Source: Eledone cirrhosa
Taxonomy: Eukaryota
Direction of reading: 5' to 3'
Assembly: GCA_964016885.1 (NCBI GenBank)
Contig: OZ024741.1
Location: 152,768,001-152,832,000, forward strand
Length of the DNA stretch: 64,000 bases
In this document: in pieces, positions 6,614-49,446 of the stretch
Layout of the letters: each line of letters opens with the position of its first letter
Numbering within the stretch: the first letter of the stretch is position 1
Notes under the pieces: generated by a model
What the model was told of the DNA's origin: nothing
Database searches by the model: none
What the model saw: only the letters and a program-made list of their open reading frames with translations
Program-made: the position numbers and the translations under genes

Positions 6614-6935
6614 ATATATAAACAACTATCTGGTTGTGGAACCAACCAACCAACCAGAAATTTATAATTTGTAAGTTTGTAGATTTGTAAATTTATAAAT
6701 TTATAAATATATAATAAATTGAAGTGAAAGCAACTGGTGCGTGTGTTTCTTATTGGCAACATGACCCTCCCAAAGTATAACAATATATATATATATATAT
6801 ATATATATATATATATATATATAGTAAAAAATTGAACGGGACCAAAACAGAGAGTCAGTACGAACAAAGGTTTATTAGTTCACACTCTTGAGAGTGGGGT
6901 GGTGTATATATATATATATATATATATATATAGAT

Positions 6936-6988
6936 GAGATTCTACAGGACTAGAACTGTTTCATTCTTTAGAAATCATCAGGAATCTC
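6936..6988 (-). ncRNA. Type I hammerhead ribozyme in a short foldback pLTR remnant (6931-7092)
   Basis: Minus strand reads gagattc-CTGATGA-tttctaaagaat-GAAA-cag(ttctagtc)ctg-TA-gaatctc: 7-bp stem I, 3-bp stem III, GUA site. Stem II is imperfect. Confidence 0.75.
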
Positions 6989-7146
6989 AGTTCTAGTCCT
7001 GTAGAATCCCATCTATATTAAAATGTTTATACTCTGCAATGTATTGAGTACCTTACTTACTGTGGTTACCTCCGATTCAACCCGGAATAACGTATATATA
7101 TATATATATATATATATATATATATATATATATATATATATATATA

Positions 7147-7440
7147 TTAGTAAAAGGAAAAGAAAATGCTGACAAATTTTTCATAGTGAAAAATAGTTTA
7201 ATTAGGAATAAGTATAAATTAGTAATAAGTATTGGTTAGTATTCAGTTTTTTGTTTTTAAGTTTTTACCGGTTGCGCATTTCATTTCTAATGCTTTTCAA
7301 AAATAATTTTGAGATAGAGCGCCCGTGATGTTTGATCTAATCGTGATGTTTACTCTAATCTAAACAGATTAGAACAAACATCACGAGCGCTCTATCTCAA
7401 AATTATTTTTCACTGGGAAAAAATTTGTCAGCATTTTCTA
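7147..7440. repeat. Foldback pLTR remnant with a degenerate U3-A8 hammerhead (7262-7304, minus)
   Basis: Inverted segments about 7162-7181/7420-7439 and 7300-7342/7366-7409. Minus strand reads TTGAAAA-gcatt..aatgc-GCAA-ccgg-TA. Confidence 0.65.
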
Positions 7441-8248
7441 TTGCGTAGGACTTACCTTGCCCTCAAACCCCCACATGACCCGGGTGGGTAGACAATGGCT
7501 GCAACATCCTTCTTTTCCCCACTTGCCAAACAAGATAGGGGAAACCCCAGCATACATAGGTAGATGTAATTCTTTTCTTTTTTCCCTTTATCTCTTCTTC
7601 TCACTTCCTTCCACTCCCTCTCCTCTTCCTTTTCCTGTTTCCTTTCGCTTACCCCCGAGGCAGCCCATCGGGCTTTTGTAGCCTCAGTACCCCTACCCCA
7701 TAAATTCTATATAGCATTGGCCGAAAACGCATTACCAGCTAACGCAATACCAGCTAAAAACATAGCTGTTTTAGAGACTAGTTTTTATTATTTTTTTATT
7801 ATTTAATTTTTTTACATTATTTTTTATTTATTATTTTTTAATTTTTTAATTTTAATTTATTAACGTTTTAATTTTTTATTTTTATTTTATAATTTCCCAC
7901 TCTCAGATTCCTCTAGAATTCTTTTTTCAACTCCGTTCTAGCTAGCCTAATCTCTCCACACTCAGTAGAATTTGCTTTCAATGCTTGACCGGCTTCACCC
8001 ACTCCCCCATAGTTCTTCAGGCAAGTTCAGCCACCCACCGCCATGAAAGATTTAATTTTGTTTACAAGAAATTCTGACCAATCCTTTTGACAACTACAAT
8101 CTTCAGAAATGCATCATTATCGCACGCCCATATAAGGAATTACCTCTTGAAAAGTTCGGCTATTTACTACCACTCTAAAAACCTAATTTAATCCAGAAAT
8201 AGCCGTCGAAACGGCTTGAGCTCTGCCGTCGGGGTCTTGAACATTTTC
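7441..8248 (+). mobile_element. PLE 3' UTR/pLTR remnant (family D) ending in (TA)n
   Basis: 7889-8030 resembles 43561-43712, which follows a PLE RT fragment. The terminal part recurs at 24297-24385 and 56637-56692. Confidence 0.7.
8142..8235 (+). ncRNA. Type I hammerhead ribozyme, U3-A8 variant with extended stem II
   Basis: acctc-TTGAAAA-g.tt.cggctattt...aaatagccg.t.c-GAAA-cggc(ttgagctct)gccg-TC-ggggt: all three stems pair, GUC site. Confidence 0.8.
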
Positions 8249-8265
8249 CTATATATATATATATA

Positions 8266-8870
8266 TTCTTGCGTTTAGATGCCTACATATTAGATATGTT
8301 TATATTTACAAACACACTGTTGCATTCTCGGTTACCCCCTCTGTATATACATATATATATATATATAAATATACTTCATGTATATATATATATACTGTAT
8401 ATATATATATATATATATATATATATATATATATATATACATGAAGTAATATCTCTTCCTCTCTCTCTCTCTCTCTCTATATATATATATATATATATAT
8501 ACAGAGGGGGTAACCGAGAATGCAACAGTGTGTATGTAAATATAAACATATCTAATATGTAGGCATCTAAACGCAAGAAAATACGAATTACCCTTTAAAT
8601 TGAAAAAAAATCCCTTTAATCGATTCTTCGGACATAATTGAACCCTCATCAGAAGGCGTGTATATCAAACAAACAACCAAATGAAACATGTATTTGGTGG
8701 GCTTATATAACCATTGGCTCATAGTATTATTCCGAATTGGTCTTACTAATTTGCATATAATTAGGGCTGGCGATGTTAATTAATGAAAGTATATGCTAAG
8801 GAGTGCACTAGCAGACGAAGTGTACGATAAAGTTATATCTGCATACATGCAGAGGGAGTAACCAAGACTA
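8266..8870 (-). mobile_element. PLE-type 3' end with a degenerate hammerhead (8613-8656) and an inverted copy of its terminal ~80 bp
   Basis: 8266-8346 is the reverse complement of about 8499-8579 across a microsatellite. Minus strand reads cctt-CTGATGA-ggg..tcc-GAAgA-atcgat-TA-aagg. Confidence 0.6.
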
Positions 8871-47241: not shown

Positions 47242-47253
47242 TACATATATATA

Positions 47254-48355
47254 AGAGGCAGAGTGTGAGAATGGCAAGAACTGCTAGATACCTACTCAGT
47301 AGTAATACCTAACATAGACCTATCTAAATAGATCTATCTTATGACTTGGGCCACCTGCTAATGACGTGTAATAGCCCAGTTACGGAAATATCTGCTGATA
47401 TTACGTGACTTTCTGAACATTGCGGATGTCATATCTGCATTTGCGAAGTTATGTTGCACAGAAATGATATCGTCCAGGAGTTGAGATTTTTACTTTTATC
47501 TCTACCAAAACACAGCCACCGTTTCTGCTATTAACTAAATGTGTGCACTCTGGACAGCTGACTGCAGCTACAATACTGCAATTCGACAGATTCATTGAGT
47601 GAGCTAGACGTTGGCCGAAGAACGTTGACTTTATACCAGCGATCTTCGTTACTTTTATACTATATTATACTCCCAGCTGCGCTGATTTGAATCTCCTGTA
47701 TAAGGTTAGACTTTTCAATATTTCTTGTTTATGTTTCCTAATATTAAATTTTGAGTATTTAATGTTCGACTTTGTATCACAAATCAGCTACTATTTGCCT
47801 GTATATATGTGTATATGCATAAACCTCGTTATCTATATATGGGTATATACGTGAAGCTAGTTGAGTTCTTTGTTTGTCGCGAATTCCTTTGTTTGAATTC
47901 AACCACAAAACTACGTATTTTAGTCTAAGATAGGATTCTTCCTTTTTTTCATTAGAGGCAGAGTGTGAGAATGGCAAGAACTGCTAGATACCTTACCCAA
48001 TAGTAATGGCTAACACACACTAAATAGACCTATCTTATGATTTGGGCCACCTGCTAATGACGTGTAATAGCCCAGTTACGGAAATATCTGCTGATATTAC
48101 GTGACTTTCTGAACATTGTAGATGTAATATCTGCATTTGTGAAGTTATGTTGCACAGAAATGATATCGTCCAGGAGTTGCCCTTTTTATTTTTATCTCTA
48201 CCAAAACACAGCCACCGTTTCTGCTATTAACTAAATGTGTGCACACTGGACAGCTGACTGCAGCTGCATTAGTGCAATTCGGCAGATTCATTGAGTGAGC
48301 TAGACGTTGGCCGGAGAACGTTGACTTAATACCAGCGATCTTCGTTACTTTTATA
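47254..48355 (+). mobile_element. ~400-bp direct repeats (47254-47659, 47954-48355) around a non-coding spacer, each with a degenerate hammerhead
   Basis: CTAATGA-cgtg..tacg-GAAA-tatc(tgct)gata-TT at 47358-47402 and 48054-48098. TA-rich flanks. Confidence 0.7.
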
Positions 48356-48598
48356 TTATATATATATACACACATATATATATATATATATATACACATA
48401 TATATATATATATATATATATATATATATGTGTGTGTGTGTGTGTGTGTGTGTGTGTGTGTGTGTGTGTGTGTGTGTGTGTGTGTGTGTGTGTGTGTGTG
48501 TGTGTGTGTGTGTGTGTGTGTGTGTGTGTGTGTGTGTGTGTGTGTGTGTGTGTGTGTGTGTGTCTGTGTGTGTGTATATATATATATATATACATATA

Positions 48599-49148
48599 CG
48601 AGGGTTCTTCAAAAAGTTTCGTGGAAAAAGGACATTTAGAAAAAACGGTTTAAGTTGTGATGTTTATTTTTCAACATATGCTCCATCTAGGTCAATACAC
48701 TTCTGCAAACCTTGATACCAGCATTTAAGTCCATCTGTATAAAACTGAGGGCTATACGATTTAAACCATGTCAAAGCAACTTTTTTTACATCTTCAACTG
48801 GGAATTATCTTAAACCTCATCTCTTCCACTTCTAAAACGACTTATCCATTTGTAGGTTGTTGATTTCTTTGGGGCATTGTCTCCATAAACTTGCTCCAGA
48901 GCGTCAATGATTTGGCTGCTCTTCCACCCTAGCTTCACCATGAATTTGATGGTTTGATGGAGGCCATGTTGCTCGAGTGGGTGCTGACTTCCGAAAGGCG
49001 GCACCGCGTTGCAACATGAATTTAAGGGTTCATGTTAGAACATGTTATGGCACGCTAAGAAGACAACATACAGGTGAATTGAGATCAAAATCCTTGCATA
49101 TGACTTTTAGCTGTGTACTTTTTCTACGAAGTTTTTAAAGCCCCCTCG
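48599..49148 (-). mobile_element. Hsmar2-like (irritans subfamily) mariner, internally deleted
   Basis: TIRs cgagggttcttcaaaaagtttcgtggaaaa / ttttctacgaagtttttaaagccccctcg with TA TSDs. Minus strand encodes IKFMVKLGWKSSQIIDALEQVYGDNAPKKSTTYKW joined to C-terminal LQKCIDLDGAYVEK*. Confidence 0.9.
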
Positions 49149-49317
49149 TATACATTCTTTATTATGCCTAAGTGGCGAGTTTTGTACTCTGGAGTTTTAT
49201 ATGTGCGCTCAGAGGCTCATCAGACAACTTAACCATAATAAAATCTATTTAACTTTACTTCGGTATTCAATACTCATTCTCACGCCCAATAATATCACGC
49301 ATATATATATATATATA

Positions 49318-49446
49318 TATTGTTATACTTTGGGAGGGTCATGTTGCCAATAAGAAACACACGCACCAGTTGCTTTCACTTCAATTTATTATAATAAACA
49401 CGTTTTCAGATAAAGAATCTTGCTAAACAAATTCAGAAACGAAATA
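49318..49446. mobile_element. ~125-bp two-ended inverted family A pLTR tip in (TA)n
   Basis: 49318-49393 is the reverse complement of 6710-6785. 49396-49446 is the forward extension acacgttttcagataaagaatc..cgaaat. Confidence 0.85.

Follow-up and report, generated by a model that had tools for sequence, protein, structure and literature searches.

Paired internal stops on TA motifs at the (TA)n-flanked ends of Penelope-like elements in Eledone cirrhosa

Why do copies of a Penelope-like element (PLE) break off at the same few internal points beside runs of (TA)n? The question was raised by a 64,000-nucleotide (nt) stretch of Eledone cirrhosa DNA (contig OZ024741.1, positions 152,768,001 to 152,832,000; hereafter the window, meaning the whole stretch analysed). 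Positions 1-6786 of the window consisted of two head-to-head copies of one PLE family, family A, and positions 34812-40226 (plus strand) held a second, family N, labelled Neptune-like in an earlier sequence-only reading. That reading had proposed that genomic (TA)n anneals to any internal AUAU of the element RNA, and that this annealing selects the start of reverse transcription and partly guides targeting, in the manner of telomerase. The 3.0-Gb genome was searched by exact sequence pattern, with the backwards-read version of each pattern as a control. Each family had two stops, and both lay on TA motifs. The two stops most likely correspond to the two internal starts of the reverse transcriptase (RT) that bound the published PLE tail, a link that the sequence-only reading did not make. 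On balance we favour the view that the element protein places the cut (TA)n ends at these two starts, and that pairing with AUAU sets the register of the junction and not its site.

Family A stopped either at a proximal point, P, with AACAAT running into (AT)n, or at a distal point, D, with CGAAAT running into (AT)n, 60 nt further on. In the uninterrupted left arm (minus strand) the two points read AACAATATCGG at 3643-3633 and ACGAAATATCGTAAG at 3584-3570. Site P is the internal ATAT at 3636-3639 (minus strand, caATATcgg; nt 23-26 of the open reading frame, ORF), where the pseudo-long terminal repeat (pLTR) ends without a tail; site D, the tail end, is the internal ATAT at 3576-3579 (minus strand, cgaaATATcgtaag; ORF nt 83-86). 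The pLTR takes in the first 8 ORF codons, or 28-29 when the tail is present, and the 60 nt between the two sites (3576-3635, minus strand) were likened to the published tail (PMC11167929; also a passage in PMC3846280). Ends at P with the form ...AAGTATAACAAT and then (AT)n were read at 6773-6822 (plus), 11619-11598 (minus) and 49330-49301 (minus), and a further P end at 30158-30199 (plus) joined as AACT/ATAT. Ends at D with the form ...AAACGAAAT and then (AT)n were read at 12750-12764 and 49439-49469 (both plus); the D end at 29313-29351 (plus) joined as CGAT/ATAT, and that at 30112-30100 (minus) had the older form CGAAG/TGTATAT. In family N, the 3' pLTR ended as CTTTCATATAT followed by (AT)n at 40216-40250, and the corresponding 5' copy read CTTTTCATATATACTAACC at 35242-35260. 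This family also had two stops, ~42 nt apart, N1 being distal and N2 proximal. When the sequence was re-read at each point, every stop coordinate given in the sequence-only reading was right, in family A and in family N. Its observation that stops are discrete and sit on internal TA motifs held at all four stop points of the two families, the TA alternation being ATAT, ATAT, ATATATA, and ATA after CUCU. At all four, the stop and the (TA)n flank had 3-7 nt of this alternation in common.

Genome-wide, 24,168 copies of family A reached AACAA. Among these, 10,238 continued as in-phase (AT)n, which are the exact copies of the P end (reversed control 0), 10,137 read through, and 3,793 did neither, representing mutated, imperfect or other junctions. 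Exact D ends numbered 9,305 and read-throughs of D 403, with no match for the reversed controls. For a sample blind to the ends, an anchor placed ~190 nt upstream was used; it had 14,512 matches in all, and we took the first 90 on contig C1. This anchor was common to both subfamilies (one bearing a private variant of the window copy matched only 16), and the resulting sample is blind to copies that end upstream of it. The 90 copies comprised 48 P ends, 38 D ends, 4 ends elsewhere and 0 read-throughs; one P end (locus L078) was assigned by hand, since the BLAST alignment continued across the TA run. With 86 of 90 unselected copies ending at P or D, ends were far from random with respect to ATAT, as the sequence-only reading had expected. 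An older subfamily (~8% diverged) gave a similar picture when 30 copies, including the window's own, were classified by eye: ~15 P, 14 D and 1 other. Among the junctions listed, ~4-5% of those at P and D carried 1-2 extra letters, mostly G, before the TA run (AACAAT-G-TATAT, AACA-G-TATAT and CGAAAT-G-TATAT; loci including L081 and L137). At the other side of the element, the 5' ends of 86 arms formed two clusters, with 17 at family A unit ~3800-3824 (window ~6494-6518) and 10 at unit 4050-4074. The former point, around which several inverted pairs were palindromic, may mark the RNA 5' end or the start of the pLTR.

The two stops were used together. Pairs were counted from the matches listed, with adjacency taken as a proxy for membership of the same insert. 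Family A had 49 outward-facing pairs within 9 kb over the first 48.46 Mb of C1, of which 44 were P+D, 3 D+D and 2 P+P (binomial p = 7.6e-9); 94 family A ends were without a listed partner. Family N pairs facing outward on C1 were N1+N2 in 30 of 30 cases, with 91 ends unpaired. Among the head-to-head pairs in the loci examined, all 23 with both ends classified were P+D, and 7 more had one end unclassified. In 65 of the 90 sampled copies the locus covered the 5' side, and 44 of these 65 had an inverted 5'-truncated partner arm; the remaining 25 extended past the locus edge. The joint use of P and D accounts for their near 1:1 counts in the genome. End type was not associated with the G/A subfamily of the anchor (G, 21 P and 19 D; A, 27 P and 19 D; Fisher p = 0.66). 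Because end type was independent of subfamily and both types occurred within single inserts, each insertion creates its stops afresh, which excludes inheritance from master copies as the main cause.

Junctions at P kept the phase of the internal motif, with 10,238 in-phase copies genome-wide versus 6 of the tested out-of-phase form, AACAAT followed by TATATATA. At D, a hand tally of the first 100 stems listed gave 72 CGAAAT(AT)n, 16 CGAT(AT)n, 2 shifted by 1 nt, 3 read-throughs and 7 others. In CGAT(AT)n the TA run reaches 2 nt further and the register is kept; such 2-nt steps are expected of a dinucleotide-repeat primer sliding on AUAU, and a ruler supplied by the protein alone would not pass over the middle A. 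In the older subfamily, D reads CGAAG and joins as CGAAG+TATATA. No read-through of this D was found among 100 matches listed, and two matches ending GTATC+TATAT hint at GAAGTATC. To judge from the junctions, base pairing likely sets their register, and the four base pairs, while likely fixing the register, may perhaps also help yield. One apparent natural mutant, a window copy at 12685 with P changed to AATCTCTG, was uninformative: its 29 closest relatives keep AATATCTG on read-through, indicating a private change after insertion.

The choice of site was a different matter. An 8-nt TATATATA lying 170 nt upstream of P carried 1 end genome-wide, and a TATA only 7 nt upstream of P carried 50. 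The family A unit contains dozens of ATAT/TATA 4-mers, yet two of them took 86 of 90 ends. Thus the proposed annealing of genomic (TA)n to internal AUAU was supported as far as the register is concerned (10,238 versus 6 at P; 16 versus 2 at D) but not for the choice of site. Template-guided targeting found no support either, as other TA motifs in the RNA were ignored and the same stops were used beside non-TA flanks. At least 8 single-arm copies had a TA run flanking their 5' side, which shows that (TA)n is truly targeted and does not arise solely as a product.

Internal starts of this kind are known from Poseidon PAc of Anolis carolinensis, whose protein in purified form nicks both strands of the DNA and extends them (Frangieh et al. 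2024, Mob DNA 15:12, PMC11167929). PAc complementary DNA (cDNA) starts at two internal sites within the first part of the ORF RNA, with the tail between them, and genomic copies end there; RNA beyond the start sites is needed, hence the internal starts, and the target is AT-rich (PMC11167929). By likeness to PAc, the same type of mechanism would apply to families A and N. The element protein would place the 3' ends of the cut (TA)n target at two fixed spots of the RNA, one for each DNA end, and nicked (TA)n would act as primer. The AUAU at each spot would then pair with the TA-repeat primer and set the exact register without choosing the site. Sharing of the two starts between the two DNA ends could be achieved by a protein dimer on one RNA, for example, or by a pair of RNAs. 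The position itself is likely fixed by something other than homology, with protein-RNA recognition as in PAc the likely candidate.

Several observations weigh against this reading. The only PLE tested in vitro can do without pairing, since the start sites of PAc are reported, in a passage of PMC11167929, to lack homology to the DNA that is cut. In E. cirrhosa itself, the same stop was kept beside non-TA flanks, namely CA repeats or unique DNA, in 2 of 52 P ends among the matches listed and also at loci L104 and L092 of the sample, indicating that pairing is dispensable. The variant shifted by 2 nt was rare at P (1 of 52 among the matches listed). In-phase junctions would equally be expected if the nick always fell in one phase of (TA)n and the start nucleotide were constant, and only the 2-nt periodicity at D counters this. 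The RNA around the family A start sites folded no better than shuffled sequence (z = -0.2) and offered no protein-recognisable structure there; the family N start region gave z = -2.9 in a single-sequence comparison with shuffled sequence. The family A motifs lie within coding sequence, AAT ATC at both sites, and could be conserved for other causes. Arm lengths followed no simple rule, and no link of strand to P or D emerged. Finally, the pattern counts cover only copies with an unmutated stem, and the evidence as a whole is based on two independent families (four sites) and the older relative of family A.

Much of this would equally suit starts positioned purely by protein, independently of homology as in PAc, the TA motifs being a by-product either of AT-rich coding sequence or of an endonuclease (EN) that recognises its own tail DNA. 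Such an account agrees with the in vitro data on PAc (PMC11167929), with the TA motifs left unused and with the stop kept at non-TA flanks; moreover, the D. virilis EN needs the tail sequence for target recognition, as quoted in a passage of PMC11167929. However, all four stops fell on TA motifs when TA 4-mers make up ~5% of the unit, a coincidence with a chance below 1e-4 by rough arithmetic. The D variants moved in steps of 2 nt (16 versus 2 among the first 100 listed), and the junction of the older subfamily still followed the TA register after an A to G change before the motif. We therefore regard protein alone as an unlikely but serious explanation. Free annealing, as originally proposed, accounts for the placement of all four stops on TA motifs, for junctions in register and for the few ends at other TA/AT sites, such as ...AAACAAAT/ATAT in L027 and L118 and the 50 ends at the TATA 7 nt upstream of P. 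Yet it cannot readily explain why two motifs among dozens take nearly all ends, why the longest upstream TA run (8 nt) has 1 end against ~10,000 at each 4-nt site, or why the stop position is kept at non-TA flanks. Nor does it predict strict P+D pairing, and a passage of PMC8557442 credits the (TA)n preference, as a hypothesis, to the EN linker. Because the 8-nt run and the nearby TATA were scarcely used, this model is largely refuted, and we give it in its full form little credence.

Two further accounts were considered. Ends might be inherited if a few P- or D-ended masters were transcribed into flanking (TA)n and the (UA)n of the transcript annealed to the target. This would suit the high uniformity of the junctions, and PLE transcripts reading into flanks are discussed in part of PMC3846280. 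It is nonetheless very improbable: end type was independent of subfamily, both end types occurred in single inserts (44 of 49 and 30 of 30 pairs among the matches listed), and a P master without a tail could never yield a D end, yet the two stood at ~1:1 in the old subfamily as well as in the young family. Alternatively, (TA)n could have grown from an internal ATAT after insertion, the downstream part being lost by deletion or by recombination between TA runs. In its favour, (TA)n abounds in the genome and such runs are unstable, but the ends were carried by thousands of copies with an identical stem, the sequence past the TA run was unrelated to the element, read-through copies retained a plain 4-nt ATAT, and decay cannot yield the P+D pairing of inverted arms. 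The probability of such an origin is close to negligible. Placement by the protein, with register set by pairing, thus remains the reading we prefer.

Family N added a feature at its proximal stop. Exact N1 ends numbered 1,028, and 578 copies ended at N2 with at least 6 CT units; the sampled distinct ends were 19 N1 and 19 N2. The internal N2 sequence is UUUUCUCUAUAACC, its motif lying at 35205-35218 and 40179-40192 of the window. Copies that stopped at N2 read ...TTTT(CT)n(AT)n (loci L209-L238), with 0-47 CT units after the first TCT versus 1 internally, and at least 4 in 16 of 19 distinct ends. The (CT)n always lay between the element and (AT)n, in register with CUCU, while the partner arm of the same insert ended straight in (AT)n. 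Reads of another data set had the same (GA)n loose ends. The junction sequences suggest that the RT stutters on CUCU at the start of the cDNA, leaving (CT)n behind. Two other origins fit less well. A pre-existing compound target would need a (TA)n(CT)n(TA)n cut exactly at its first junction, and the order (TA)n(TC)n was rare (459 versus 78,139, see below); growth of (CT)n from two units after insertion, in every young copy, is unlikely. For the empty site of a short N1-N2 insert (L215:900-2010), no bridging contig was found in public runs, a set that did not include the RAD-seq (restriction-site-associated DNA sequencing) runs of the species. The one joint seen at L215, which connects 1513 with 1891 at depth 2 and has 18 extra letters in between, does not represent an empty site. 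Family N sequence at ~90-99% identity (L215:1423-1795) occurred in contigs from runs assigned to other organisms, indicating that the family is common to relatives of the species.

The same compound repeat was widespread. Genome-wide, (CT)n of at least 7 units followed by (AT)n of at least 6 occurred 78,139 times, versus 459 for the mirror order, (TA)(TC). Forty sampled (CT)n(AT)n junctions (L246-L285) had varied upstream sequence and included at least 4 recurrent repeat families besides N, so the polar excess is a feature of the genome that extends beyond family N alone. One recurrent family upstream of (CT)n(AT)n also stood beside (TA)n at window 6933-6990. It is possible, though we hold it only tentatively, that the PLE RT starts like a small telomerase, copying CUCU or AUAU over and over, writing (CT)n and probably extending (TA)n. 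In that case PLEs would themselves create and extend the microsatellites they target, which would explain the polar compound repeats (78,139 versus 459).

Both families carried the hallmarks of EN-containing PLEs, with pLTRs formed by partial tandem copies, a 5'-truncated copy in inverted orientation, and a tail at one of the two ends. The GIY-YIG domain (Pfam PF01541; cut-off 22.6) scored 24.7 bits in family A (5864-6361) and 28.2 bits in family N. By eye, cysteines were seen between GIY and YIG in both (VVYSIRC..C..VYIGET and LIYAITCGGC..YIGQT), as was a C-x4-C-xx-C motif before the domain (C-IDKK-C-IT-C in family A, C-GRTN-C-GT-C in family N). According to a passage of Craig et al. 2021 (PMC8557442), a CX2-5CxxC linker upstream of GIY-YIG together with a (TA)n insertion bias marks Neptune/Nematis-type clades, and families A and N both had this motif and (TA)n flanks. 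The RT of family N matched Pfam RVT_1 at 30.0 bits (cut-off 29.6). That of family A had no Pfam match even at E = 10, and the two families aligned across the RT blocks YGL.K.HK, S.DV..LY, Y.Q..G.A.G and Y.DD with E = 5e-8. No hammerhead ribozyme, a usual pLTR feature of canonical PLE clades, was detected with Rfam, either in the window at the gathering score or in 5400-6800 at E up to 10. A string in the family A pLTR, CUGAAGAG-GUCACA...UGUGAC-GAAA (window 6574-6606), resembles a hammerhead core by eye.

The left arm of the family A pair (1-3700, minus strand) was delimited by self-BLAST, translation and RT motifs in common with family N; its unit starts at 3700 and its 3' end lies beyond the left edge of the window. 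Its ATG is at 3661-3659 (MTLPKYNN...) and its RT frame at 3483-910. The ATG frame (from 3661) and the long RT frame are one base apart, implying an intron or a frameshift between them, and a GTAAG resembling a 5' splice site (3574-3570, minus strand) stands one base after site D. Introns are kept in PLEs. The ORF also contains a long, self-repeating, asparagine-rich stretch of low complexity (NNNNN, TH repeats; window ~2670-2900, minus strand, and 44750-44960), resembling the N-rich inserts that part of PMC3846280 describes in Penelopes of A. vaga. The right arm (3703-6786, plus strand), identified by self-BLAST and Pfam, is 5'-truncated and includes the GIY-YIG EN at 5864-6361. Its pLTR enters the unit start by 65 nt and stops at site P (ATAT 6783-6786), adjoining (TA)n at 6783-6823. 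The inverted arms (1-2691 and 3703-6322) were 99.4-99.5% identical by self-BLAST, and both copies had a stop (910 and 5412) and a frameshift ahead of the EN.

Older remnants of the family were scattered over the window. A diverged fragment at 11598-11619 (minus) ended at site P beside (TA)n. An older relative at 11868-12764 (plus), whose EN was 46% identical, ended at site D (12750-12764), and an older copy at 27134-29351 (plus; ~88% identical) ended at site D in the form shifted by 2 nt, CGAT/ATAT. Two small inserts were arranged head to head. In the one at 30100-30199, the minus arm ended at D (30112-30100) and the plus arm at P (30158-30171, then (TA)n), with no overlap of the arms in unit coordinates; in the other, at 49301-49469, the minus arm (49381-49317) ended at P and the plus arm (49398-49447) at D, with (TA)n flanking both. 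The family N copy comprised a 5' pLTR (34812-35253, plus), a coding region (35233-38797, plus; two stop-to-stop frames, 35233-36603 and 36497-38797) and a 3' pLTR (39788-40250, plus; N1 end CTTTCATATAT at 40216-40226, then (AT)n to 40250). Within the 5' pLTR, N2 is internal as TTTTCTCTATAACC at 35205-35218 and N1 as CATATATAC at 35247-35255, and the 5' junction with (AT)n likewise lies on an internal ATATAT (compare 39778-39787). Elsewhere, the window contained an unrelated non-LTR retrotransposon ORF of 1,133 amino acids (aa) at 14759-18160 (plus; apurinic/apyrimidinic (AP) endonuclease, RT and PHD finger), very many (TA)n runs and TA-rich minisatellites (for example 13043-14656 and 60950-61540), and an assembly gap of 200 N at 33832-34031.

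The PLE tail and internal initiation already account for the core of these observations. What is new is that the start sites match the (TA)n target, with 2-nt steps at the junctions, that proximal and distal starts are used near-obligately together, and that (CT)n runs accumulate at one start; none of these three was found in the PLE literature searched. To our knowledge, the 2024 study of PAc is the only biochemical work on PLE integration, and its two starts were not homologous to the target. The ~20,000 natural integration ends in this one genome add three constraints unseen in vitro. In families A and N, which target (TA)n, both start sites carry the repeat unit of the target and the junctions keep its register. 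Each integration combines a proximal start on one end of the DNA with a distal start on the other, which suggests that a two-headed complex sits on the RNA. The (CT)n at one start bears on the relation between repeat addition of the telomerase type and retrotransposition, and on the origin of polar compound microsatellites.

Telomerase aligns its template with, and adds repeats to, a DNA 3' end made of short repeats. The likeness here is a repeat-ended DNA 3' end on a template holding two repeat units (AUAU, CUCU); unlike in telomerase, the template RNA is the element's own mRNA, and the (CT)n at N2 is only suggestive of repeat addition. The EN-deficient PLEs Athena and Coprina were reportedly found by Gladyshev and Arkhipova in 2007 to prime on telomeric overhangs through short telomere-like stretches. 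Families A and N would resemble them in that, where the cDNA starts, the PLE RNA is complementary over a short stretch to a DNA 3' end made of repeats. However, Athena and Coprina lack an EN and act at chromosome ends, whereas the elements here have one and insert at internal (TA)n, with pairing of at most 4-7 nt at internal sites probably fixed by the protein. In LINE-1 twin priming, as Ostertag and Kazazian are said to have proposed in 2001, both cut target ends prime on the RNA and give head-to-head inverted inserts. The window inserts at 30100-30199 and 49301-49469, with their non-overlapping arms, look much the same. In LINE-1, by contrast, the second priming site is arbitrary; here both sites were fixed, 60 nt apart, and many inserts had overlapping or palindromic arms. 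The PLE RT is placed, in a passage of PMC8557442, as the sister group of the telomerase RT (TERT).

Among PLEs, the Penelopes of A. vaga are described in part of Arkhipova et al. 2013 (PMC3846280) as having a pLTR that covers 12 aa without the tail and 22 aa with it, the tail being on one inverted pLTR, and PAc has been described with the same tail architecture (PMC11167929). Families A and N followed the architecture set out in passages of PMC3846280 and PMC8557442, with the first ORF codons in the pLTR, an extension on one of the inverted pLTRs and an inverted 5'-truncated copy on the 5' side. In those passages the tail is called optional, or often at one end, and is credited to EN-mediated resolution, whereas here it was near-obligate (44 of 49 and 30 of 30) and its boundaries lay on TA motifs. 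As in PAc, both families had two stops, and those of family A lay early in the ORF (nt 23-26 and 83-86). The tail measured 60 nt in family A and ~42 nt in family N, compared with 30-40 base pairs in PAc. The PAc starts involve an AC-rich stem-loop at ORF nt 111-118; by contrast, the starts here lay on TA motifs that match the (TA)n target. PAc in vitro made no difference between top and bottom strands, whereas each insert here used each site once.

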